Shown here piece by piece: positions 1-14,279 of a DNA stretch of 14,279 nt. The notes under the pieces are model-generated. The model saw nothing but the letters and a program-made list of their open reading frames with translations. It was not told the origin of the DNA and searched no databases. The DNA is from Nitrospirota bacterium. Lineage in GTDB: Bacteria > Nitrospirota > UBA9217. The position numbers and the translations under genes were made by a program. Each line of letters starts with the position of its first letter. Position 1 is the first letter of the stretch. Location of the stretch: NCBI GenBank assembly GCA_035623825.1, contig DASPSR010000038.1, positions 1 to 14,279 on the forward strand, in the 5' to 3' direction.

Positions 1-1761
1 TCCGCTTAGGGCATTCAGCATCTTGGCCCCGTCAGGGGATCCCCAACCCGTGCACGCATCCCAGCCCGGGCCGGCATTGTATGCTCCTCCGTCGCCGGTG
101 ACGTCGTTGTTGCCGGCCGTGATGTCATGAAATGCGCCTGAGGAGGCAGGAAGGCCGTAGAGCGCAGGATTAAGATAACCGACCGGGCTTCCTATTTTTT
201 GGTTTAGGAGGGCGATCAGGCCTGACCAGAGAGGCGCGACCGCGCTCGTTCCACCGATAACATCCTGTTGTCCATCCACCAGAACCTGATATCCCGTTAC
301 CGGATCAGCGTCTCCTGCCACATCAGGCACACCTCGTCCCACTCGACCTCCTGGGTTTGCTGATGGCGGGACATTGGCTCCGGCTTGCCACTTTGGGAGA
401 TCGAACACGTCACTAATTCCCCCTCCGGTAGCGCCGCCGTCTCTCCCGTCATTCCACACTACTTCCTTAGTGATGACATTACCTGAACCTGTCAGCCGGG
501 TGCCGCCACAGGCAAGCGAATGAGGACTGGAAGCAGGAAAATCCACATGCAGAAGTCCGTCATCTGGTTCCGGTGGGCGAAGATCGGACGAGCCATCGTC
601 CCCCGCTGCACAGCAGACAGTTACGCCGAGGGTCGCGGCCTCCTGGAATGCCTGGTCCATGGCCTGCATTGTCTGTTGCGTCCATCCCTTTTCCGGTCCA
701 CCCCAGCTGATCGAGATAACCGAGGGCTTATTGCTGTTATCGTGGACAGCACTCTTAATCGCATCAAGAAAGCCGGCATCGGTGTTGGGTGCGAAATATA
801 CCACGATCTGCGCACCGGGAGCGACTGCGCCGGCCACCTCGATATCGAGGAGCACCTCGCCATCAGCATTCGTATCTACCATCGGTTGGTTGTTAGCGCC
901 ATCAACAGATACGCTTTTGATCTGCGGTGTGGCGATTCCAAGTTGAGAAAAGTAGGTATCGAGATCCACCATACGGTATCCGCCCCCAAGTTCTATTATG
1001 GCTATGCACTGACCGCTTCCATTCACTCCCTGCGGGAAGTCGTAAAGCTTTGCAATCTGGGGAGGCAGGTAAGATGTGCCATCTGCGCGAGGTTGGGCCG
1101 CTCCTTCCTGTTGTTTCCATGGACGCATGTGCGGCCGGGCTTGAGGCCGGTTATCGAGACCAAGGACGGCCTCAATGACTGGTGCGATGTCCTTCGGCAA
1201 ATGTATCGGTCCTGTACGTCCACGGTATGTTCCGCCCGGATGTTCGTATTTGTACAGATCAACACTAAACGCAGCACTGAGAGCGGCCACTGTCCCGGCG
1301 AGTACCACTCGGCGCTGTGCAGCGTTGGTTTCCACAATTTCCAGTCCGTACTTGCCTGCGAATGCCTCCATCTTTTTTAAATCACCGGGATCGGCACCAT
1401 GCCTCGCGGCAAATTCTTCGCGGCTAAGGTATTTGCGATCAGAAGGTTTGCGAGCACCCATCTTATCGATCATGGAAGTGAGCCCCTTGCTGGAAGGGCG
1501 ACGACGAATGATCACGGTAACCATGGCACGTTCATTCGGATCTGCCGGCCCAACTACGCGTGCCCCGGGAAGAGCGGTGCGCCCGCTGCCAGCGATCGGA
1601 ATTCGCTTCATAGGTGCTGGCACAATTTTTTTCTTTTTTGAAGTCTTCTTTATTGCTTTTTTGCCGAGAAGCTTCTTTTTCTTGACCGTTTTTTTGACAG
1701 CTTTTTTAAGCGTGGATTTTTTTACTTTTGACTTACTTTTGCCCCGTGATTTTTTAGGCAT
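1..1761 (-). CDS. S53 family (sedolisin/kumamolisin-like) serine-carboxyl peptidase with pro-domain and Lys-rich N-terminal extension; 3' end runs off the window
   Basis: Translated by hand: ATG at 1761, RBS AAGGAGGA at 1771-1778, open to position 1 (587 codons, no stop in window). Pro-kumamolisin-like region (GARVVGPADP...LSREEFAARHGA...VLGLDNRPQARPH). Catalytic motifs DGEVLLDIE (E 856-858, D 844-846), ISISWG, AAGDDG (oxyanion D 598-600), DFPASSP, GRGVPDVA, GGTSAVAP (S 244-246). C-terminal FHDIT..GWDACTGWGSPDG Ca-binding region. Confidence 0.95.
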   Translation of the reverse strand, partial: MPKKSRGKSKSKVKKSTLKKAVKKTVKKKKLLGKKAIKKTSKKKKIVPAPMKRIPIAGSGRTALPGARVVGPADPNERAMVTVIIRRRPSSKGLTSMIDKMGARKPSDRKYLSREEFAARHGADPGDLKKMEAFAGKYGLEIVETNAAQRRVVLAGTVAALSAAFSVDLYKYEHPGGTYRGRTGPIHLPKDIAPVIEAVLGLDNRPQARPHMRPWKQQEGAAQPRADGTSYLPPQIAKLYDFPQGVNGSGQCIAIIELGGGYRMVDLDTYFSQLGIATPQIKSVSVDGANNQPMVDTNADGEVLLDIEVAGAVAPGAQIVVYFAPNTDAGFLDAIKSAVHDNSNKPSVISISWGGPEKGWTQQTMQAMDQAFQEAATLGVTVCCAAGDDGSSDLRPPEPDDGLLHVDFPASSPHSLACGGTRLTGSGNVITKEVVWNDGRDGGATGGGISDVFDLPKWQAGANVPPSANPGGRVGRGVPDVAGDADPVTGYQVLVDGQQDVIGGTSAVAPLWSGLIALLNQKIGSPVGYLNPALYGLPASSGAFHDITAGNNDVTGDGGAYNAGPGWDACTGWGSPDGAKMLNALSG

Positions 1762-1847: not shown

Positions 1848-3149
1848 TCAAAGCGATTTCAAGAACGTTATGAGCTGTCGCTTCTGACGATTCGTTAGAG
1901 CAATGAACTTTTTTCGCTCCAGGGATGCCTCTCCCCGGTGCCTCAGGATGGCATCGGCGAACGTCAGCGACTTGCCGTCGTGCATGAGGCGGCTGCGAGT
2001 CCGGACGCCCCACAAAGGAGGCGTGCGCATCCTGTTGGCAGTGAGGGAATACTGCGGCTGCATTTCGTAGTATGACATGCCGTAGTGTTCTATGACGGGT
2101 ATGACGATGCCATCGCCAGTTCCGACGTTGTGAAGCAGGAAGTCGCTGAAAGGATGAAATATCTTGTCCCCTAATGCCGGTGGAACAGTGAAGGTGCCGC
2201 CGTTTATCTGTGTTCCGGCCGGTACTGTCTGCATCGTGCGTACATGGCACTGCGCGCATCCGACGGAGTCAAAGAGGGCCGATCCTTTCTTCGCATCCTC
2301 GGTCTGGGAGAGCTTCACATCCCGGGGAGGCACTTTTGTGGCGCGCATGAACCGGGCGAAGTGGTCGATGTCCGCCAGCCCGTCCGTCCCGGGCACGTCT
2401 TCGGGGTCCTTTACCGTGTCGCAGAGCGTCGTGACTTCAGTGGGTTGGAGGCGGTTGGTGATTCCCATTTCGTTGAGATACGCGTCGCCTGCGAAGGAGA
2501 GCAAGGTGGCCTGCTGGTCCTTCCAGCCGAACCTCCCTATGCGATACTTCCCTGGCGCTTCCAACACGGGTACCGAGATGGCTTTGCCGCAGATCCTGCC
2601 GTGCGTCTTATGGCACTGGCTAGTCGCGATCTGATTCAGTGTCTCGTCGGCAACCGCCTCCACGAATCCGTCCCCCAATAAGTTCAAGGAAGTGCGCAGA
2701 GTCCGGATAGTCTCTGTATCAGGAACGCGCTCCTGGATCTCTGCGTCAGGAAATTCGCCATTTGGGCAGATGGCGCGGTCATTGATGAGGGTGCGACCCG
2801 TTATAACCGTGGAGCCATCTGCGATAGGAACGCTGGGATTGACGAAGTTGCCTTTGCTGTCAAGGTGCCCTACGCGCAGCTCGGTCACCTGGCTGATGCC
2901 TCCGGACTGCGGGTTCTGATGGCACTCGCGGCAAGATTGGGCATTGTAAAGCGGGCCGAGGCCGTCTGATATTTCTTCGACCTCATCAAATACTTCAGCG
3001 TCAGCCGTATGCGTTGCTGCATCCACCAGACCGTTGGTAGCTCCGTCGAATGCCGCAGGCGCTTCCTGTGGACCTGTCTCTGCAATTCCGATAGATAGCC
3101 CCAGAGCGAGCAATGTTAACAGTGCAAGAGCACAAACTAAGCTTTTCAT
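1848..3149 (-). CDS. Secreted di-haem c oxidoreductase/peroxidase-like protein (DHOR family)
   Basis: Start placed at ATG 3149 (GGAGG at 3155-3159) rather than GTG 3155. N-terminal signal peptide MKSLVCALALLTLLALGLSIGIA. Two CXXCH motifs: CRECH (2919-2933) and CAQCH (2244-2258). Family-type motifs DGLGPLYNA, GRFGWK, AYLNEMGIT, PFSDFLLH, RTPPLWG, LMHDG, AILRHRGEA, FLKSL. Confidence 0.88.
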   Translation of the reverse strand: MKSLVCALALLTLLALGLSIGIAETGPQEAPAAFDGATNGLVDAATHTADAEVFDEVEEISDGLGPLYNAQSCRECHQNPQSGGISQVTELRVGHLDSKGNFVNPSVPIADGSTVITGRTLINDRAICPNGEFPDAEIQERVPDTETIRTLRTSLNLLGDGFVEAVADETLNQIATSQCHKTHGRICGKAISVPVLEAPGKYRIGRFGWKDQQATLLSFAGDAYLNEMGITNRLQPTEVTTLCDTVKDPEDVPGTDGLADIDHFARFMRATKVPPRDVKLSQTEDAKKGSALFDSVGCAQCHVRTMQTVPAGTQINGGTFTVPPALGDKIFHPFSDFLLHNVGTGDGIVIPVIEHYGMSYYEMQPQYSLTANRMRTPPLWGVRTRSRLMHDGKSLTFADAILRHRGEASLERKKFIALTNRQKRQLITFLKSL

Positions 3150-3331
3150 AGACACCTCCCGAATCTTCTAAAGAGTTTTCAATATGAAGTGTGACTCTCA
3201 CGCTTTTACTACAGATCGACTCTACAAATTGCCGACACCGCATGCTTGCTGCAATACATTAGCAATCAAACATTAAGACGTGAAAACATCATTTAGTTGG
3301 ATATTGTATTGTTCTCCGTCCTCTAAAACAT

Positions 3332-3362
3332 AAAAAGCCGCCAGAGATAATCTCTGGCGGCT
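3332..3362 (-). terminator. Rho-independent terminator forming the expression platform of the riboswitch
   Basis: Minus strand AGCCGCCAGAGA-UUA-UCUCUGGCGGCU, a perfect 12-bp stem, followed by UUUUAUGUUUU. Its 5' arm overlaps the 3' end of the aptamer. Confidence 0.9.
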
Positions 3363-3443
3363 CGGCGGACATTCAATCCAGTTACCTGGTTGGCCCCGTT
3401 GCTCTGCGTCCCGGGGTTTCCCCCGGTTTGCTCTGAGCAGAGA
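3351..3443 (-). ncRNA. GEMM-I (c-di-GMP-I family) riboswitch aptamer, A20 variant (candidate 3',3'-cGAMP sensor)
   Basis: Minus strand reads UCUCUG-CUCAGA-GCAAA-CCGGGG-GAAA-CCCCGG-GACGCAGAGC-AACGGGGCCAA-CCAG-GUAA-CUGG-AUUGAAUGUCC-GCCGAGCCGC-CAGAGA. It has P1 UCUCUG/CAGAGA, the GCAAA and GACGC core motifs, a P2 hairpin with GAAA tetraloop, and P3 with a receptor-like CCAA/AUG element ending GCCGAGCCGCC. This matches the c-di-GMP-I consensus layout. Confidence 0.88.
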
Positions 3444-3506
3444 AGAATTTAATTCTTTAAATCCTTCGAATTCTATCAATGAGCATGTAAAAACCACATT
3501 ATTATT

Positions 3507-3648: not shown

Positions 3649-3676
3649 TTGACAATTCTATTTTTTTTGGTACAAT
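3649..3676 (+). promoter_or_regulatory. Putative sigma70 promoter of the diguanylate cyclase gene
   Basis: TTGACA (3649-3654), 16-nt spacer, TACAAT (3671-3676) with extended -10 TGn. About 90 nt upstream of the start codon. Confidence 0.7.
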
Positions 3677-3768
3677 TAATATAGAAATTGAATATCTCGT
3701 TTAAGGCGATTTAGTCTGACGCTACTTCTGTCCGGCTCATCGACGATACTCGATTCTTGGAGAGTCAA

Positions 3769-5619
3769 ATGCATGCTAGGATTATGCCTACGCGGCTTAT
3801 ACATCCGAGTAGTTTTTTACATGTCATCCTTCTACTGTTGTCGATGTGTCTCGTATTTTGCGTTAACTCGTCCTTGGCGCAGCCCAAAGTGACCGTGTCC
3901 CCTCCGGACAGGATCGTGGCCGTTATCCCGCCTGATTCTCCACCCACATATTTTATTGATAAAAAAACTGGCAAACCGGCCGGCTTTGCGGTCGATGCCA
4001 TGAACGCCATTGCCAAGCGCGCCGGCCTGCGCGTCGATTACATTTTTGAAGATGGCTGGACCGATATTATGAACCTGTTAATGAGCGGTAAAGCGGATGT
4101 TGTCCCTGGTCTCGGCGTAAGTGAAGAACGAAAAGAATATTGTGCATACACCGAGCCGCTGGAAACATTCCCTGTTTCATTTTTTGTACGCGCCAAACAC
4201 CCCGACCTCACGTCGACGCCGGGCATTCACCTTGTGGGGGTCATTCAAGGGAGCGTTGCATTTGAACATCTGAAAGACCGGCCTGATCTGCGCCTGTCGG
4301 AATATGAGAGCTTTGTCCAGGGGCTATTCGATCTTCTCGCGGGGAAAATAGATGCTTTCGCATGTCCTGCGCCGACGCTTCAGGCTCTTGCCCGCGAGTC
4401 GGGAGTAGATGACCAGATCAAAATGATCGATGAGCCGATAGTCGAGATCAAGCGGGCAATTGGCGTTCGCAAAGACAATACTGCGCTTTTGAGACGGTTG
4501 GATAAGGCCATGGCTGGTTTTGTCGGCTCGCCTGAATATCAACGTATTTATGTTAAGTGGTATGGTAAGCCGACTCCTTTCTGGACCTTGAGAAAAGTTG
4601 CCATACTAGGAATTGCGGCAGGGTCGTTCGTCATCATTATGGCGATTTGGAGGCATTTATCGCTGCTGAGACTCAACCGCGAACTTAACATCACAATACA
4701 AGAACGAAACAAGGCCGAGCTGGAGTTGAGGGAAAGCGAAAACAAATACAGAAAAATATTTGAAAATGTCCAGGATGTATTCTATCAGTCGGATATGAAT
4801 GGAATTGTTACCGACATAAGCCCGTCAATCCTGCGATACTCCGGCTTTACCCGTGAAGAACTGATCGGCAAACCTATCACAGATTACTACTATAATCCAC
4901 ACGACGGGGTCAAGCTATTTGAAACGATGCGGAAAGACGGAGAAGTAATCGATTATGAGGTCCGGCTGAAAACGAAAGAAGATCAATTCGTGATCGCATC
5001 GGCCAATGCGCATTACATTTATAATGATGGCGGAGCGCCTTCCGGAATGGAGGGGTCATTCCACGATATCACTGAGCGAAAAAAAGCGGCTGAGGAACTG
5101 AAGCGCCTGAACGAGCTTCTTGCATGCCAGGCTACCACGGATCAACTCACCGGAATATCGAACCGGTCGAAGTTCAACGAAGCGTTAAACATCGAGATCC
5201 AGCGTTCGAAACGATTTAAATTCCCACTTTCGCTTATTATCTTCGATATCGACCATTTCAAAAACATAAATGACATGTACGGCCACAATGCCGGCGACCG
5301 CGTCCTGCAGGAACTTGCGGGATTGGTTTCGAAGGTTGTCAGAAAACATGACCTCTTCGCCCGCTGGGGAGGAGAGGAGTTTGTAATCATGGTGACGAAC
5401 ACAGAACTGCTTGGTGCTGAAATTTTCGCGGAAAAACTGCGCATGCTAATAGGAAAATCTGACTTCCTAGGCGGGGTACATCTTACAAGCAGCTTCGGTG
5501 TGGCTGAATTCTCCCCTTACGATACCAACGAGGCTTTGATCAATCGAGCGGATAAAGCACTTTACCGGGCGAAAACGGGAGGAAGAAACAGAGTTGAATC
5601 CATGCCGGCGTCAGACTGA
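3769..5619 (+). CDS. Membrane-anchored diguanylate cyclase: periplasmic substrate-binding (family 3/PBPb) domain, TM helix, PAS domain, GGDEF domain
   Basis: Start uncertain (ATG 3769 follows GGAG 3759-3762; the track uses TTG 3757). Hydrophobic signal ending SLA. PBPb motifs (DSPPTYF..GKPAGFAVD, GKADVV, GKIDAF, YQRIYVKWYG). TM segment VAILGIAAGSFVIIMAIW. PAS (ESENKYRKIFEN...GFTREELIGK...DITERK). GGDEF domain (TDQLTGISNR, FDIDHFKNIND, GHNAGD, RKHD I-site 5341-5352, GGEEF 5368-5382, ADKALYRAK..GRNRV). Confidence 0.95.
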   Translation: MHARIMPTRLIHPSSFLHVILLLLSMCLVFCVNSSLAQPKVTVSPPDRIVAVIPPDSPPTYFIDKKTGKPAGFAVDAMNAIAKRAGLRVDYIFEDGWTDIMNLLMSGKADVVPGLGVSEERKEYCAYTEPLETFPVSFFVRAKHPDLTSTPGIHLVGVIQGSVAFEHLKDRPDLRLSEYESFVQGLFDLLAGKIDAFACPAPTLQALARESGVDDQIKMIDEPIVEIKRAIGVRKDNTALLRRLDKAMAGFVGSPEYQRIYVKWYGKPTPFWTLRKVAILGIAAGSFVIIMAIWRHLSLLRLNRELNITIQERNKAELELRESENKYRKIFENVQDVFYQSDMNGIVTDISPSILRYSGFTREELIGKPITDYYYNPHDGVKLFETMRKDGEVIDYEVRLKTKEDQFVIASANAHYIYNDGGAPSGMEGSFHDITERKKAAEELKRLNELLACQATTDQLTGISNRSKFNEALNIEIQRSKRFKFPLSLIIFDIDHFKNINDMYGHNAGDRVLQELAGLVSKVVRKHDLFARWGGEEFVIMVTNTELLGAEIFAEKLRMLIGKSDFLGGVHLTSSFGVAEFSPYDTNEALINRADKALYRAKTGGRNRVESMPASD

Positions 5620-8607: not shown

Positions 8608-10344
8608 TTAATACGAGTAGTAAGGTCCGGTGCCGACGCTCGACGTCTTTCCCTCAATTCCCACGAAGATATTACGTCCAAAGAAAAGTGGAATTCCCCA
8701 ATCGAACTGATTTGGTGATGATGATCCGCCGATATTGGAGAATGCGTTGTTGGACGAATTGGTAAGGCTGGTGAAGTTTTCTATTTGGAAGAGAACCTCA
8801 CCGCTCGGTGATCCCGAGGCCCCTTCGTTCACTGCGGAAAGGGTCGTCGTGGACGAGGGACAGAACCATCCGGAATCGGAAGACGGGCAATCAGGGAGAA
8901 GGCCTGTTGAGGGAGGGGCGAAAAACAGGCCGTTTGAGCCGCTGTCGATAACGCCCGCATAGGAGCCACTGAAATTTGTCACTATTTCACCGTTTGCATC
9001 GGTGTTATACGTAGTAATCCCGGAAGGGACATTGTTGGTCTTTGTGCCGATCCCAAGCACAAGAATTCCGTTGACTGAGGGCGAACCGTTCGAAGGCACA
9101 CTTGTAAGCTGCACACTCACACCGTTATTATCTGCAGGGAGCAGCGCCACTGGATTCTGTACTTGGCTGGAAAGGGGGACTGTTGTGCCCGTGCACGTCG
9201 ATCCGCTGCAGGAGTAATAGATTCCGTTGTTTGCATCGGTTGCGCAGGTTGAACCGCAATCCTCGGTGAAGACGCCGACCCCCAGTATCCCGGTTAAGCC
9301 GGCGACCGAGGGGCTCGTATCCGGGATGCCGCAGGAGCTGGGGACCGTGCCGAAGCTGGAATCTATGACCTGAATTGGAACATTCTGGGCGGTTTCGCCG
9401 CCCAGGGTAACGTCCCCTAACTGAACAGGCCCCCAATCCGACGAGCCGTCACCAAACTGAGTGCACTCGACGACTGATCCGGAACCACCGGTTGCCTGCA
9501 ACTGAGAAAGGGTTACAGGACCCAGGGCCGATCTGAAAATTCGGAGTCCATAGCTGCCCGTATCGAGGAGGATGTCGTCAATCGTCTGGCAGGTGGACGT
9601 ACCGTGAGTGCAGACCGTAACACTGACGCAGGGCTTGTTGATGTAGGAAGCTGAGGTACTGGCCGAACAAAGCGAGCCGTTCACGGTGATCGGAAGCACG
9701 TTGCTGGCAGGCGCGGCATTGCCCCCTGTCACCGTCAGTAAGGCAGATCCCGAGGCGTTCCCTGACCTGGCCGTAATCATTGTTGCAGCTGTTGTGGCCG
9801 TGGAAATTGCGGTCGCCACATTACTGCTGACAGTCGCGACATTGGGGTCCGATGAAGCCCAACTTACCAGTGTCGTGATGTCCCTGGCAGAATTGTCCGA
9901 GTAAGTCCCCGTGGCAGTAAACTTCTCGGTCGTACCGGTCGGAATACTCGATACCGTCGGCTGCACATCAATAGATACAAGCGCCGTAGCGCCCACCGTA
10001 AGGGCAGTAGAGTCCGAGATGCCCCCTAACTCAGCCGTGATCGTCGTTGTGCCCGTAGAGACCGAAGCGGCCAATCCATTGAAATTTGCCGCGTTGCCAA
10101 TAGTTGCGACATTGGCAGCTGATGAAATCCAGCTTACTGATGCCGTGATGTCCCTATCGGAATTATCCGAGAATGTTCCTGTAGCTGTAAACTGTTCGGT
10201 CGTCCCAAGTGCAATGCTCGACCCTGCCGGCGTTATGGCAATTGACCGGAGTGTTGCCGACGGTGTGCCCGATCCGCTGCCACTTGTGCAACCGGCCACC
10301 AGATCTAGAACCAGCAAAAAAAGCTGGATTTTACTTGATTTCAT
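8608..10344 (-). CDS. DUF3443-family lipoprotein with two N-terminal Ig-like (Big_2-type) domains and a pepsin-like aspartic protease fold
   Basis: Start revised to ATG 10344 (AGGAG at 10354-10358). Lipobox VAG-C and two Ig-like repeats. DUF3443-type motifs YINKPCVSVTVC..GTSTCQTID.ILLDTGSYGLRI, ECTQFGDG, WGPV, GILGVG, QVQNPVA, DNNGV, LVLGIGT..NN, IDSGSNG, FDWG.P.FFGR. Confidence 0.88.
   Translation of the reverse strand: MKSSKIQLFLLVLDLVAGCTSGSGSGTPSATLRSIAITPAGSSIALGTTEQFTATGTFSDNSDRDITASVSWISSAANVATIGNAANFNGLAASVSTGTTTITAELGGISDSTALTVGATALVSIDVQPTVSSIPTGTTEKFTATGTYSDNSARDITTLVSWASSDPNVATVSSNVATAISTATTAATMITARSGNASGSALLTVTGGNAAPASNVLPITVNGSLCSASTSASYINKPCVSVTVCTHGTSTCQTIDDILLDTGSYGLRIFRSALGPVTLSQLQATGGSGSVVECTQFGDGSSDWGPVQLGDVTLGGETAQNVPIQVIDSSFGTVPSSCGIPDTSPSVAGLTGILGVGVFTEDCGSTCATDANNGIYYSCSGSTCTGTTVPLSSQVQNPVALLPADNNGVSVQLTSVPSNGSPSVNGILVLGIGTKTNNVPSGITTYNTDANGEIVTNFSGSYAGVIDSGSNGLFFAPPSTGLLPDCPSSDSGWFCPSSTTTLSAVNEGASGSPSGEVLFQIENFTSLTNSSNNAFSNIGGSSSPNQFDWGIPLFFGRNIFVGIEGKTSSVGTGPYYSY
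9730..10254 (-). repeat. Tandem intragenic duplication encoding two Ig-like domains
   Basis: Repeat 1 (about 10254-9994) SIAITP..SSIALGTTEQFTATGTFSDNSDRDITASVSWISS...NVATI. Repeat 2 (about 9984-9730) SIDVQP..SSIPTGTTEKFTATGTYSDNSARDITTLVSWASS...NVATV. Confidence 0.9.
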
Positions 10345-10867
10345 CAACAATCACTCCTGGCGGTATTAAGGCCAACACGTAGGCGCGGCCCCGTAGGTTT
10401 CGCATATGGCCCCATTTCTCGACCACAATCACGTCCGTCTTTACCCGAGAGAATCTGCTGCCCGGCTTGCGTGGCGTCTTCAGCAGAGCCTGATGATATT
10501 CGCCGGCATAGGAACCCAGAAGAGGCGTGAGATCTGGGTGGATCAAGCCATTCCAAGCGATTCCAAATACAACGCCGGATGGCGATATATACTCCCGAAC
10601 GGTGACCGACGCAGAAGTGATCTCCTGAACAGTGTAGCCAGTGTGGATTATTGCAGCGCCTTGCATGGCCGAGAGCGCATTAAGGTCAGACATGACCGAA
10701 TCGGCAGATTCACCGAGTGCAGCTTGAGCTACATGTACTGCCGCAAGAATGGCCGCCAAAATGCCCAGGCAAAAAAACAGGACATAGAATCTTTTTCTCA
10801 AGGTCGTGAGATCCCTCATAATTTTTTGCAAACTACGAAAGCCCGTCTCTGCATTTACCGAGATCAT
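10331..10867 (-). CDS. DUF2844-family secreted protein
   Basis: Start uncertain (10867 or the ATG at 10819). Signal peptide ending AQA-ALG. Motifs YTVQEI...TVREY.SP.G.VFGIAW.G...PDL..LLGSY...Y and GHMR...GRAY....IP.GV...I match DUF2844. The stop overlaps the DUF3443 start by 14 nt, the usual gene order for this pair. Confidence 0.85.
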   Translation of the reverse strand: MISVNAETGFRSLQKIMRDLTTLRKRFYVLFFCLGILAAILAAVHVAQAALGESADSVMSDLNALSAMQGAAIIHTGYTVQEITSASVTVREYISPSGVVFGIAWNGLIHPDLTPLLGSYAGEYHQALLKTPRKPGSRFSRVKTDVIVVEKWGHMRNLRGRAYVLALIPPGVIVDEIK

Positions 10868-10906: not shown

Positions 10907-12373
10907 TCAGTGTTCCACCAACCGCTGTGTAGCAGCATCTGACGATAGAGATTCCCATCCGCCCCCCAGCGCCTTGTATAGGGCGACGATATCAGTAATG
11001 ATGTTACCCTCGCTTTGCACTAATGCGTTTTCCGATGCGTAAAGTGATTCTTGAGCAATAAGCACGTTGAGAAAAGCGATTTGGCCTTCGGTGTAAAGCA
11101 GAAGCGACAGGTCCACTGCTTTGCGGTTGGCCGCTGCGGCTTCGGCAAGCGATTTTCGGTGTTCCTGCTCATTTGCAAAAGCAATTAGTGCATTTTCGAC
11201 ATCCTGAAATGCTGCTAGTACTGTTTCCTGGTAGGTGATGAAAGCCTGGTCGCGCAGCGCCTGCTGCAAACGCACATTAGATACAGTAGCGCCTCCCTGG
11301 AAAATCGGCCAACTCAGTGACGGACCGAAAGAGTACGAACGGTTGTTATTGCTAAACCACGAGTGAAGCAGATTACTGTTCCAACTTACCGCGCCGGTCA
11401 GCGAAAACGCGGGGAAAAATTGCGCGACGGCAACACCTATTTGAGCGGTGGCGGCATGGAGTTGTGACTCGGCTTCACGGATGTCGGGACGGCGACGAAG
11501 CAATTCCGAAGGCAGCCCGGCTGGGATTTTCGCCGGCGCGACGGGCAGGTTGCCCGTGGGCGACAATTTTTCCAGCAAATCCGCGGGCGGCCGCGCCAGC
11601 AGCACGCTTAACGCATAAATGGATTGCCGCGCTGATGTTTCAAAGACGGGGATTTGCGACTCTGTCGTAGCGACATTGGCCTCGGCGTTGGCAACATCGA
11701 GGGCACTGCTGAAGCCCACATCGAATAGTTTCCGGGTGATTTCAGCAGTGTGCTGCTGCGCTTCTAAGTTTTTTTTTGCGACCACGATCTGCTGCTGGTA
11801 ACCGCGTAACTGTATATAATCAAGTGCGACTTCGGAGATGAGGCTGACCTGCACATCCCGGATGTTCTCAATGGCGGCCTGGATGTTGGCGTTGGCTGAT
11901 TCTATATTGCGCCGAACACCCCCGAACAGATCGATCTCCCATACGGCATCCAAACCTGACAGATAAAGGTCCTGCGCGTGGTCGTCAGGAGTGACGCCGG
12001 CCGTATGCTGCCTCTGGTAGCTGCCTGAAGCGGTAACGGACGGCCACAAGCCTCCTTTTGCGATCCCGCCCAAAGCACGGGCCTGGCGCAAGCGAGACTC
12101 TGCGATTTGCAGGTTTAGGTTCGTCTTCACCGCTTCCTCGACAAGCTCGTTCAGCGTTGGATCGTTGAACTGCCCCCACCACAGACTGAGTTCAGCCGAC
12201 TGAGCAGTTGCCTCTGATGGTTGGCCTCCCGGCGTCTTCGTCACGCCGACCCACGTGTCAGGTGCTGCTGTCTGCGGTGGATGATAGTCCGGACCCACCA
12301 TGCACCCGCTGGCTAGAAGTAGTAAACCGGCGGCAATTAAGGCGGCAGGACACGCTTGCTTATTCCCATTCAT
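10907..12373 (-). CDS. Efflux transporter outer membrane factor (NodT/OprM/TolC family lipoprotein)
   Basis: Start revised to ATG 12373 (GAGGA overlapping the permease stop). Lipobox LASG-C followed by MVGPDY. Motifs WWGQFNDPTL..LVEEA..N.NLQIA..R, WEIDLFGG.RR, GLPSELLRRRPDIREAE, AFQDVENAL, LYKALGGGW. Confidence 0.95.
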   Translation of the reverse strand: MNGNKQACPAALIAAGLLLLASGCMVGPDYHPPQTAAPDTWVGVTKTPGGQPSEATAQSAELSLWWGQFNDPTLNELVEEAVKTNLNLQIAESRLRQARALGGIAKGGLWPSVTASGSYQRQHTAGVTPDDHAQDLYLSGLDAVWEIDLFGGVRRNIESANANIQAAIENIRDVQVSLISEVALDYIQLRGYQQQIVVAKKNLEAQQHTAEITRKLFDVGFSSALDVANAEANVATTESQIPVFETSARQSIYALSVLLARPPADLLEKLSPTGNLPVAPAKIPAGLPSELLRRRPDIREAESQLHAATAQIGVAVAQFFPAFSLTGAVSWNSNLLHSWFSNNNRSYSFGPSLSWPIFQGGATVSNVRLQQALRDQAFITYQETVLAAFQDVENALIAFANEQEHRKSLAEAAAANRKAVDLSLLLYTEGQIAFLNVLIAQESLYASENALVQSEGNIITDIVALYKALGGGWESLSSDAATQRLVEH

Positions 12374-12383
12374 CACTGCATCC

Positions 12384-13757
12384 TCACTCATATCTGAGCG
12401 CATCGATTGGATCGAGCCGCGATGCCTTCCATGCAGGATAGAAACCAAAAATGACACCCACAACAGCCGAAACTACCACTGAAACCACGATAGCGCCCAT
12501 CGAAGCCGCTGTTGGCCAGTGCAAGACCGATGTGACAATGTACGAAGCGCAGCGTCCCAGGATTATGCCCATCGTGCCGCCGAGAAGGCACAGTACTATG
12601 GCCTCAATCAAAAACTGCCGCAGAATGTCAGCCGGCTCTGCACCCACGGCCATGCGCAGACCGATCTCGCGCGTCCGTTCAGTGACCGAGACGAGCATTA
12701 TGTTCATGATTCCAATGCCGCCGACAATCAGCGATATCATCGCAACGCACAGTAAAAGCTTCGTTATCAATTCTGTCGTAGAACTCATTGCCTTGGTAAT
12801 TTCGGTCATGTCACGTATCGTGAAATCGTTCTCATCGCCGGGCAGAAGATGATGACGCTCCCTGAGCAGCGAGGTCATTTCCTGCATCGCGGCAGGTACC
12901 TGGCCTGCGGACTGGGCCGCCGTCAGTATCTGGTCCACGTTTGTAAAGCGGATTGGCTGCGGCGTGTCGGTCTGCTCCGTTGCTGACGCTGCAGGGTAGA
13001 GGTTCTGCTGGAGATTAGGATAGACCTGGCTCAATGAAGTAACTTCGTTGCCGCTCGCAGTACTTGTACTGCTCTGGTTAGCGGCGGAAAGCGAAGAGGC
13101 CACTACCCGGTATTTGATGGTTGTCCACGGCGCCAGCAGGATATCATCCTGGTCCATGCCCATCATGTTTGCTCCCTTTGGGCCCAAGACGCCTATTACC
13201 TTGAAGGCCACATTCCTTATCCTGATCTCCTTGCCTATGGGAGATTCTCCGCCGAACAGCTGCCTTACGATGGTCTGTCCGATCATGCATACCTTATTCA
13301 CATTCAGAACATCGTGTTCGGTGAACGCTTCGCCGCTGTCAAGATCGGTCCAATCCCGAACCTCCAGAAACGCAGGAGTAGTGCCATAGAGGTAAGTCGG
13401 GACATAGTTGCGATTGCCGTATACGAGTTGGGTGCGGGCGCGCACGATGGGTGCAACACTGCGAATTGAGGGGATCTCTTTGATGATCGCATCGGCGTCC
13501 TGCGGCGTCAGCGTCATTATGCTGCCCATCCCGAAGTTTATGCCGCCTGTGCTTGCGGCCCCCGGAACGACCACAAGAGTGTTGGCGCCCATGCTGGCCA
13601 TGGTACGCTGGATAGCGATAGTCGCTCCATTGCCTATCTCCATCATTGTGATCACCGCCGCAACTCCGATGACTATGCCGAGCGTGGTGAGCATCGTCCT
13701 CATGACATTGAGACGAAGTGAATTTAAAGCCGTTTTCAAGATGCCGCGCCAGTTCAT
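12384..13757 (-). CDS. MacB-type ABC transporter permease (periplasmic core + FtsX domain)
   Basis: GAGAGG RBS. N-terminal TM RTMLTTLGIVIGVAAVITM and large periplasmic domain. Motifs ISLIVGGIGIMNIMLVSVTERTREIGLRMAVGA, QFLIEA, GFYPAWKASRLDPIDALRYE. Confidence 0.95.
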   Translation of the reverse strand: MNWRGILKTALNSLRLNVMRTMLTTLGIVIGVAAVITMMEIGNGATIAIQRTMASMGANTLVVVPGAASTGGINFGMGSIMTLTPQDADAIIKEIPSIRSVAPIVRARTQLVYGNRNYVPTYLYGTTPAFLEVRDWTDLDSGEAFTEHDVLNVNKVCMIGQTIVRQLFGGESPIGKEIRIRNVAFKVIGVLGPKGANMMGMDQDDILLAPWTTIKYRVVASSLSAANQSSTSTASGNEVTSLSQVYPNLQQNLYPAASATEQTDTPQPIRFTNVDQILTAAQSAGQVPAAMQEMTSLLRERHHLLPGDENDFTIRDMTEITKAMSSTTELITKLLLCVAMISLIVGGIGIMNIMLVSVTERTREIGLRMAVGAEPADILRQFLIEAIVLCLLGGTMGIILGRCASYIVTSVLHWPTAASMGAIVVSVVVSAVVGVIFGFYPAWKASRLDPIDALRYE

Positions 13758-13776
13758 ACCGCCTCTCGAAACTCGC

Positions 13777-14279
13777 CTATATCGGGGCTTTTTCTATCAG
13801 GCCATCCTTGATGTAAATGACCCGCCGTGCATGCCGCGCCACGCCGGGATCGTGGGTAACGAGGATAATAGTGATGCCATCGGTGTTATTGAGCTGTTGG
13901 AACATTTGAAGGAGTTCCTCGTTGGTGCGCGAATCGAGGTTCCCGGTCGGCTCATCGGCAAGGAGTACTTGAGGGTTGTTGATCAGCGAGCGTGCGATAG
14001 CCACACGCTGCTGTTGTCCGCCAGAAAGCTGGGAGGGGACGTGATCGAGGCGATCGGCCAGACCTACTTTTTCCAGCAACCCGACGGCACGCTGCTTCTT
14101 TTGGCCCTCACTCAAGTTCTCCCTCGTATAGAGAAGAGGCATCATTACATTCTCCAGAGCGGTTGTGCGCGGCAGCAAGTTGAACGTTTGGAAGACAAAA
14201 CCAATCATGCGGTTTCGCAGTCGCGCCTGCTCCGCTGCATTGAGTCTGGAAATCTCCCTGCCGCCAAGCCAGTACTTTC
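13777..14279 (-). CDS. ABC transporter ATP-binding protein (MacB/LolD-type), 5' end outside the window
   Basis: The frame stays open to the window edge (..KYWLGGREISRLNAAEQARLRNRMIGFVFQ). Q-loop GFVFQ, signature LSGGQQQRVAIAR, Walker B LLADEPTGNLD, H-loop VTHD. Walker A lies beyond the window. Confidence 0.95.
   Translation of the reverse strand, partial: KYWLGGREISRLNAAEQARLRNRMIGFVFQTFNLLPRTTALENVMMPLLYTRENLSEGQKKQRAVGLLEKVGLADRLDHVPSQLSGGQQQRVAIARSLINNPQVLLADEPTGNLDSRTNEELLQMFQQLNNTDGITIILVTHDPGVARHARRVIYIKDGLIEKAPI

Follow-up and report, generated by a model that had tools for sequence, protein, structure and literature searches.

An A20-type GEMM-I riboswitch, a candidate cGAMP sensor, upstream of a di-haem protein gene in a Nitrospirota bacterium

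The closest described relatives of the riboswitch reported here are GEMM-I aptamers of Vibrio cholerae and Geobacter. In the Vc2 aptamer of V. cholerae, whose numbering is used throughout, the key residues are A18, G20, C46, A47 and C92 (bioRxiv 10.1101/871194). In the parts of two papers that deal with the binding pocket (PMC5888326, PMC6140456), G20 reads the Hoogsteen face of one ligand guanine (G-alpha), C92 is the Watson-Crick partner of the other (G-beta) and A47 is the intercalating adenine. The same portion of PMC6140456 states that in the Geobacter aptamer Gs1761 an A at the G20 position pairs with the ligand adenine, and that the change G20A opens Vc2 to cGAMP (3',3'-cyclic GMP-AMP). 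As summarised in the sections of PMC8835794 on Geobacter riboswitches, there are 17 GEMM-I copies, of which 12-13 bind cGAMP. The cGAMP riboswitches defined the Hypr-cGAMP pathway, and the literature, as far as it was covered, treats them as essentially a Geobacter speciality. We describe an aptamer with the same A in a Nitrospirota bacterium, on a 14,279-nt stretch of DNA (the window) that is the entire contig DASPSR010000038.1, called C31 here, of assembly GCA_035623825.1 (3.24 Mb, 67 contigs, 53% G+C, 89.65% complete). Of the sequence words sampled at the locus, a fraction of 0.85 or more was present in seven DNA runs labelled peat metagenome. A literature search found nothing pairing Nitrospir* with GEMM-I or cGAMP riboswitches; the supplements of the primary cGAMP-riboswitch papers were outside its scope, so that earlier sightings may exist there.

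When the whole window was scanned (cmscan, Rfam 15), the c-di-GMP-I model RF01051 gave the sole match above the gathering score. It lay on the minus strand at 3442..3353 and covered model positions 1-87 of 87, with 52.6 bits (cut-off 35 bits) and an E-value of 4.5e-8; the whole-genome Rfam search recovered the same match. The E-value, the folding of the leader (z -5.8, see below) and the recurrence of homologous aptamers across the family place the match beyond chance. By every test run the RNA belongs to RF01051, and we regard it as a genuine cyclic-dinucleotide riboswitch of the GEMM-I fold. Its features, with P1 to P3 for the paired stems, are the following.

3353..3442, minus strand: GEMM-I aptamer, called type S below, with P1 UCUCUG/CAGAGA, P2 with a GAAA tetraloop and a short P3 (RF01051).
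3432, minus strand: A at the specificity position of Vc2 G20 and Gs1761 A14 (cmscan alignment, model position 11).
3404..3406, minus strand: C46 (3406), A47 (3405, the intercalating adenine) and G48 (3404, consensus A) (cmscan alignment).
3357, minus strand: C92 equivalent, at the first C in the 3' 'gCC' (model position 83 of the cmscan alignment).

Model position 11 is unpaired and has as its consensus the G immediately 5' of a paired G-C, which corresponds to Vc2 G20. The pair that follows the A of the window is G(3431)-C(3406), equivalent to Vc2 G21-C46 in the same alignment. The A18 equivalent was retained at 3434, and the ligand-contacting junction residues A18, C46, A47 and C92 of Vc2 were all present (4/4). 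The A at 3432 and the C at 3357 form together the sequence hallmark of the GEMM-Ib subclass. A first-pass annotation, made by eye from the letters of the window, had read A at the G20 position with A47 and C92 kept, and the Infernal alignment was identical, the Rfam model placing A, not G, at the discriminator position. The span proposed at the time, 3351-3443, does hold the aptamer, within the slightly narrower bounds given above. Two deviations from the consensus were also correctly noticed, GACGCAGAGC in the junction between P2 and P3 (J2/3) where the consensus has GACGCAAAGC, and a P3 receptor reading CCAA where the consensus is CUAA; the first of them proved, in its G48, to be a trait of the lineage and no defect, as described below.

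The aptamer precedes, in the same orientation, a gene whose start lies 204 nt downstream of it, and is followed by an expression platform. The elements of the putative operon are listed below.

3452..3479, minus strand: promoter-like site TTGATA-16-AAGAAT (consensus scan only, 9/12 matches).
3327..3363, minus strand: intrinsic terminator with a 13-bp stem (3363..3335) and a U tract (terminator scan).
1848..3149, minus strand: first regulated gene, encoding a secreted di-haem protein of 433 aa with a signal peptide and the motifs CRECH and CAQCH.
1..1761, minus strand: second gene, encoding a peptidase of the sedolisin type (S53/S8) and truncated where the contig ends (Pfam Pro-kuma_activ and Peptidase_S8).

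The 5' arm of the terminator is made of the 3' strand of P3, C92 and the 3' strand of P1, and its 3' arm is a repeat of the P1 5' strand (UCUCUG). In the ligand-free minimum free energy fold of the 125-nt leader, P2, P3 and the terminator were formed and P1 was absent. This leader folded at -59.1 kcal/mol, compared with -38.5 +/- 3.6 kcal/mol for shuffled sequences. Because a ligand-stabilised P1 and the terminator are mutually exclusive, the leader is predicted to be a transcriptional ON switch. The promoter-like site ends 10 nt upstream of the aptamer and would place the RNA start near the aptamer 5' end. A paralogous type-S leader on contig C27 of the same genome is 79.5% identical to that of the window over 215 nt, promoter region and terminator included.

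We propose the following model of the switch. With no ligand bound, the aptamer 3' strand would pair with the downstream copy of the P1 5' strand, the 13-bp terminator would form and transcription would stop. Binding of the ligand at the three-way junction would allow P1 to form and block the terminator, and the RNA polymerase would then read into the di-haem gene and probably also into the sedolisin gene. The A in place of G20 would remove the guanine-specific recognition of the Hoogsteen face and admit the adenine of cGAMP. In the cells, cGAMP would be the likely signal, made by the serine-type (Hypr-like) GGDEF enzymes of the family, and c-di-GMP would be read by the G20 copies that the genome also carries. 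Taken as a whole, this model, in which we infer the ligand, the enzyme activity and the co-transcription of the sedolisin gene, has in our judgement slightly better than an even chance of being right.

The product of the first gene matched the Pfam family DHOR (PF06537, di-haem oxidoreductase, putative peroxidase) with 97.6 bits over residues 141-433; NCBIfam had no family for it, nor for the lipoprotein found behind the type-L aptamers described below. The first-pass annotation had placed a c-type haem protein downstream of the riboswitch, outside the known regulon, and both statements held: the protein is secreted, carries two CxxCH motifs and belongs to DHOR, and its link to the riboswitch is new. 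The sedolisin gene begins 86 nt downstream of the DHOR gene and, judging from this arrangement, is probably co-transcribed with it. On contig C27, the paralogous riboswitch is immediately followed by a gene for a paralog of the sedolisin (77.6% identity over 541 aa). The DHOR ortholog most similar to that of the window (87% identity) was encoded by a Nitrospirota metagenome-assembled genome (MAG) of the same genus, where it is preceded by an intact aptamer of 50.3 bits (L139); there was no sedolisin within 3 kb of that DHOR locus. Among DHOR loci of other genomes, mostly Acidobacteriota, an aptamer was found upstream in 1/20 by Rfam and in 1/80 by a loose regular expression, the one of the 80 being that of the same-genus MAG. 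The riboswitch-DHOR link is thus limited to the source genome and one same-genus MAG, and the di-haem gene therefore appears to be a recent, genus-level recruit to the riboswitch regulon.

To follow the distribution of the aptamer, all 64 family genomes were searched using a pattern with fixed flanks in which any base was allowed at positions 20 and 48. Matches were obtained in 51/64 genomes and 16/19 genera. All 74 relatives' matches bearing the P2 hairpin, together with three copies from the source genome, made up a set of 77 aptamers, of which 27 were of type S, 45 of type L and 5 of other designs. Type S, that of the window, is characterized by P1 CUCUG/CAGAG and a short P3, and type L by P1 CUUUG/CAAAG and a long P3 insert (40-70 nt), with one copy in the source genome (C53:24696-24831). 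A20 was present in each of the 72 type-S and type-L aptamers (72/72) and in 73/77 overall, G20 being found in 4 of the 5 others. G48 occurred in 70/77. The combinations A20/A48 and G20/G48 were seen in 6 and 3 of the 77, respectively. A47 was fixed by the search pattern and its constancy in this set is uninformative; the 3' GCC/ACC motif containing C92 was present in all 77. In the alignment of the 27 type-S aptamers, 4/19 predicted pairs showed compensatory double changes and P1 was almost invariant. The window aptamer is, on this comparison, no stray mutant and belongs to a conserved A20 group. In a sample of 401 genomes of the phylum, the pattern of the window aptamer was found in 90 genomes; it was frequent in some families (f1 48/63, f2 6/6, f6 3/3, f8 6/11) and essentially missing from others (f10 0/28, f17 0/40, f16 0/14). 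Among the phylum-wide CAG-type matches bearing the hairpin, the seven G20 examples, counted by eye, all had A48 (7/7), and the A20 examples mostly had G48, with 8 exceptions; shared ancestry was left uncontrolled in this association of positions 20 and 48.

As for the first genes behind these aptamers, in the relatives 39/44 type-L leaders precede a conserved lipoprotein of about 149 aa with the C-terminus NPGEVNIQPP, for which the matches to CarboxypepD_reg were weak and below the curated cut-off in the four members sampled. Large Big_2-repeat lipoproteins, two of them with an fn3 domain, follow 16 of the 25 type-S leaders from outside the source genome. The remaining type-S genes encode a two-haem Ig-like protein (L151), three beta-helix-like proteins, small family-less proteins and one DHOR protein (L139, mentioned above). 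G20 aptamers that share the GACGCAGAGC J2/3 of the window and have another P1 (L152, L177, L180; G046, G008, G065) were observed to precede small secreted rhodanese-domain proteins.

Terminators overlapping the aptamer, with covariation of the arms, were found in 45/45 type-L and 17/27 type-S leaders. A terminator was also computed for the type-S leader L144, appeared spurious on inspection and was left out of the 17. In the ten type-S leaders that have no terminator, a ribosome-binding site (RBS) directly follows (L144, L160, L162, L165, L166, L168, L170, L172, L182, L183). Seven of these ten carry CAGAGGAGG, in which a second CAGAG, a further copy of the 3' strand of P1, is joined to the Shine-Dalgarno sequence. 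This second CAGAG could pair with the P1 5' strand, and the arrangement suggests a translational ON version of the switch.

In RNA libraries, the similarity of contigs from four metatranscriptome-labelled runs (three studies) was limited to the aptamer's conserved 5' half, mostly 3393-3446, with divergence on both sides of it. The RNA present in these libraries therefore comes from other copies or from relatives, not from the window locus, which was not found in the RNA-library runs (at most 0.06 of the sampled words).

The source genome contains 19 RF01051 matches, 18 of them above the cut-off. In the cmscan alignments, position 20 is A in 8 copies and G in 11, so that two pocket states are kept in one genome, which is the situation of Geobacter. 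The A20 copies show three designs. The junction of the window is shared by three copies (window, C27:55399 and C53:24696), two copies with AAGAGUAAAC (C26, C61) lie upstream of a multihaem cytochrome, and three copies with AAAACCAAAC (C9, C20, C15) have a C21-G46 pair. The window copy goes to RF01051 and not to RF03167 (c-di-GMP-I-GGC) in the Rfam clan competition. Among the 18 other loci of the genome, 15 score best with RF03167, 9 of them above its cut-off of 59 bits. The RF03167 consensus has G beside C46, at the A47 position, where all 15 loci and the window have A; comparison of the two consensus lines suggests that these 15 loci lack the pocket change after which the variant is named. 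An automatic RF03167 annotation would consequently mislabel the pocket state, which the Rfam assignment alone (RF01051 or RF03167) does not report. GEMM-I matches were found in 35/41 genomes searched around the window, including 23/24 family genomes besides the source genome. The riboswitch is expanded in this Nitrospirota family, with up to 27 copies per genome (27 in G012 and 22 in G001). Some copies lie only a few hundred bases apart in tandem, such as those at G017:C53:17498, 17786 and 18087.

The first-pass annotation had named two kinds of enzymes as possible sources of cGAMP, Hypr GGDEF proteins and a CD-NTase, and candidates of the former kind were found. The genome encodes 17 GGDEF domains, with Asp at the PleD-D344 position (GacA S348) in 13, Ser in 3 and Asn in 1. 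For a GAF-GGDEF protein (C13:236907-238040) the best solved match was 6D9M, with 111.9 bits versus 105.9 for WspR (phmmer). The structure 6D9M is a T4-lysozyme fusion of the Hypr GGDEF domain of G. metallireducens GacA, and R304Y and D348S mark the path from a diguanylate cyclase to a cGAMP cyclase (PMC6456294). The protein aligns N-Y-R and G-S on those of 6D9M, that is Tyr304 and Ser348, both signature changes of GacA. A precedent for a GAF-Hypr enzyme is the cAMP-activated GacB of M. xanthus (bioRxiv 10.1101/600031); the same source describes an HD-GYP phosphodiesterase specific for cGAMP, with the motif Rxx[Q/N]. Orthologs were present in 62/64 family genomes, and Tyr, Ser and a GGEEF motif were kept in all 30 examined (L234; L235-L263), which makes this protein, as far as its residues tell, a conserved natural exception to the published Ser/Thr-GGDE[F/Y] rule. 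The genome also encodes three HAMP proteins of the membrane in which the GGDEF domain is divergent (C27:67589-69037 and C35:20019-21422 with Ser, C17:8716-10128 with Asn). They read GGDDF. The C27 and C35 proteins have Pfam matches to HAMP and partially to GGDEF only, with no EAL or HD-GYP domain, and in PDB alignments the Ser aligns with the canonical Asp. These two proteins have the features described for GSU1937 of G. sulfurreducens, a likeness drawn from the published description. According to section 2.3 of PMC8835794, the signal of a cGAMP reporter in G. sulfurreducens drops when GSU1937 is deleted, and cGAMP was produced in Escherichia coli by a single fusion construct carrying the GSU1937 domain. 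The HAMP-GGDDF type occurred in 58/64 family genomes, with Ser in 24 and Asn in 4 of 28 motif-matched loci (30 loci; L204, L205-L233). Taken together with those of the relatives, the HAMP proteins read GGDD[F/Y]. Candidate synthases thus exist and are conserved.

Several lines of evidence point to cGAMP: A20, A47 and C92 stand together in the pocket, A20 has been fixed in two architectures beside G20 copies in the same cells, Geobacter offers a precedent, and serine-type enzymes are encoded. We expect this RNA to accept cGAMP; since its first shell equals that of the engineered variant Vc2 G20A, c-di-GMP would probably be bound as well in vitro. That cGAMP is the physiological ligand we consider an evenly balanced question, and the following observations weigh against it. 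In Gs1761, A14 is followed by the pair C15-G40 (equivalent to C21-G46) and by A42 (PMC6274999), whereas the window has G21-C46 and G48; such neighbours are said to influence selectivity and are not established as defining it. The three copies of the source genome with the Gs1761-type pair (C9, C20, C15) are, by their pocket, better cGAMP candidates than the window aptamer. The first shell of the window is identical to that of Vc2 G20A (A18, A20, G21-C46, A47, C92), and the binding data included in the available part of PMC6140456 give for this variant 53 nM with c-di-GMP and 120 nM with cGAMP. The same data give 30 nM with c-di-GMP and 463 nM with cGAMP for Cbe 1-2, an aptamer with a natural A20, and explain the binding of c-di-GMP to A20 aptamers by a protonated adenine. 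Both RNAs bind c-di-GMP equally well or better; A20 does not by itself give selectivity, and the combination of G20A and C92, which the first-pass annotation had taken as the hallmark of cGAMP sensing, is necessary for the cGAMP subclass but insufficient. On the enzyme side, the motif of the GAF-GGDEF protein is GGEEF and departs from the 'Goldilocks' rule (Asp at the third position with Ser348); GacA D374E was inactive, and natural Ser/Thr enzymes were reported as exclusively GGDE[F/Y] (PMC6456294). The GEMM-Ib assignment made at first sight was therefore overstated, both for the pair beside A20 and for the Ser and GGEEF of the best synthase candidate. The activity of the GSU1937 type comes, in the sections of PMC8835794 concerned, only from one engineered fusion and from reporter data. 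A GGDDF-type domain was found in 169 genomes of the 401-genome sample, including families poor in the aptamer (f9 39/76, f11 22/35, f24 11/14, f16 6/14). With the enzyme present in families that have few or no riboswitch patterns, the co-occurrence neither supports nor refutes a link; within the family, both are near-universal and their co-occurrence is uninformative. For the CD-NTase, no Pfam SMODS (PF18144) or DncV-like NTFase (PF21654) match was obtained in the source genome, 89.65% complete, PF21654 having also matched 0/14 control genomes. Lastly, the CCAA receptor is that of the window copy alone among the 27 type-S aptamers.

Many of these observations would fit a riboswitch that physiologically senses c-di-GMP. 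The A20 would lower the affinity from picomolar (G20) to tens of nanomolar, the operons would be on only at high c-di-GMP, as a second threshold beside the G20 copies, and cGAMP would play no role. The affinities of Vc2 G20A and Cbe 1-2, the protonated adenine and the shared first shell all favour this possibility, as do the reported inactivity of the Ser/GGEEF combination, the missing CD-NTase match, with its limit for PF21654, and the 13 GGDEF domains with a canonical Asp. One of the latter belongs to the gene that divergently adjoins the riboswitch. However, two serine-type GGDEF families have been kept in nearly all genomes of the family, which argues for a function, and the A20 state marks cGAMP sensing in Geobacter, in the accounts cited above. 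The affinity could moreover be tuned by the stability of P1, with the pocket untouched. We regard a purely c-di-GMP-responsive switch as rather unlikely, though a serious contender. A signal other than these two is quite improbable in our view: c-di-AMP, a linear dinucleotide or another cyclic oligonucleotide would be recognised through A20 and G48, making the aptamer an orphan variant comparable to c-di-GMP-I-GGC or -UAU. Position 48 lies beside the intercalating A47 and is G in most of the family, where the Rfam consensus and Gs1761 (A42) have A; the phylum-wide hairpins mostly couple A20 to G48, as seen above, and Hypr GGDEFs are able to make all three dinucleotides in vitro. But C92, which reads guanine, is invariant in the 77 aptamers, so that one base of the ligand should be G. 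The nine family aptamers with A20/A48 or G20/G48 moreover make the association loose, in addition to its confounding by shared ancestry, and G48 may do no more than pair with a C that stands, at the base of P3, in place of the consensus U.

Very improbable, finally, is that the window copy is a decaying duplicate that binds no ligand and acts as a constitutive terminator or a leaky leader. It is a within-genome duplicate of the C27 leader, its CCAA receptor differs from that of the 26 other type-S copies (26/26), and its score is among the lower Rfam scores of the genome. On the other hand, no damage is seen in the pocket residues, in P1 or in the terminator arms, all of which match the C27 copy exactly, the change in P3 preserves pairing (A-U to G-U) and the ortholog in front of the DHOR gene of the same-genus MAG is intact. 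A constitutive 13-bp terminator before two intact genes would also be costly.

Other genes of the window may be mentioned. Divergent from the riboswitch lies an SBP_bac_3-PAS-GGDEF gene (3757-5619, plus strand) with the canonical Asp and a GGEEF motif, preceded by a promoter-like site near the consensus at 3649-3676 (11/12). Its sequence suggests that this gene, which adjoins an operon controlled by a cyclic dinucleotide, encodes a probable diguanylate cyclase. At 8608-10867 and 10907-14277, both on the minus strand, a conserved-looking export cluster was observed; an outer-membrane efflux protein, a MacB-type permease and an ABC ATPase are encoded on one strand, then a DUF3443/Big_2 protein and a DUF2844 protein.

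A broader hypothesis can be formulated from these elements, and we put it forward tentatively, as rather less likely than not. This Nitrospirota family and several neighbouring families might run their own Hypr-type cGAMP pathway, with A20 and G48 readers on a Vc2-like scaffold and a Tyr304/Ser348/GGEEF writer. Under this same tentative hypothesis, two riboswitch architectures would turn on Big_2/FN3 and CarboxypepD_reg-like lipoproteins, cytochromes, DHOR and sedolisin. If it were true, cGAMP signalling among the anaerobes of soil and sediment would extend well beyond Geobacter and the myxobacteria, and both the selectivity rules of the riboswitch and the 'Goldilocks' rule of the enzyme would need revision. 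In dozens of Nitrospirota riboswitches the pocket change known from Geobacter has become fixed, accompanied by conserved GGDEFs of the serine type. Two outcomes can be envisaged, either that cGAMP signalling reaches the Nitrospirota of peat and soil, or that A20 re-tunes the sensing of c-di-GMP there, and either of them would sharpen the rules by which the ligand of a GEMM-I riboswitch is predicted from its sequence. The conserved Ser/GGEEF enzyme also bears on the published claim that such enzymes are naturally absent and inactive. The wider lead lies in the family-wide A20 and G48 riboswitch classes, with 19-27 copies per genome, and in this conserved natural enzyme.

Compared with the known systems, the window aptamer is closest in several respects to the Geobacter GEMM-Ib riboswitches (Gs1761, Gm0970, pilM and the pgcA leader). 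It belongs to the same Rfam family and has the same three-helix junction, in which A stands for G20 while both the intercalating A and the C92 equivalent are retained. In both cases terminator-based ON switches precede secreted or surface proteins, including c-type cytochromes, and the genomes hold G20 copies and serine-type GGDEF enzymes next to the A20 copies. The window differs by its GAAA tetraloop and receptor-type P3, which resemble the general consensus, by its host, a Nitrospirota MAG and not a member of the Desulfuromonadota, and by its regulon of DHOR, sedolisin and Big_2/FN3 lipoproteins. In Gm0970 and in the leader of pgcA, cGAMP is preferred over c-di-GMP by hundreds-fold or more, and the window aptamer is likened to them by sequence alone. 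Vc2 G20A was engineered and is bispecific, whereas the A20 of the window is natural and fixed in its type-S and type-L homologs, with G48 and the sequences of P1 and P3 differing from those of Vc2. Cbe 1-2 of Clostridium beijerinckii is, like the window aptamer, a natural A20 GEMM-I outside Geobacter, a likeness that concerns A20 and its natural origin. The variant c-di-GMP-I-GGC belongs to the same clan (CL00126) and is set apart by the G of its consensus at the A47 position, where the window has A47 and scores best with RF01051. We therefore propose to place the window aptamer in the A20 (GEMM-Ib-like) kind, as a candidate cGAMP riboswitch from a phylum, and with a regulon, that are both new to this kind.

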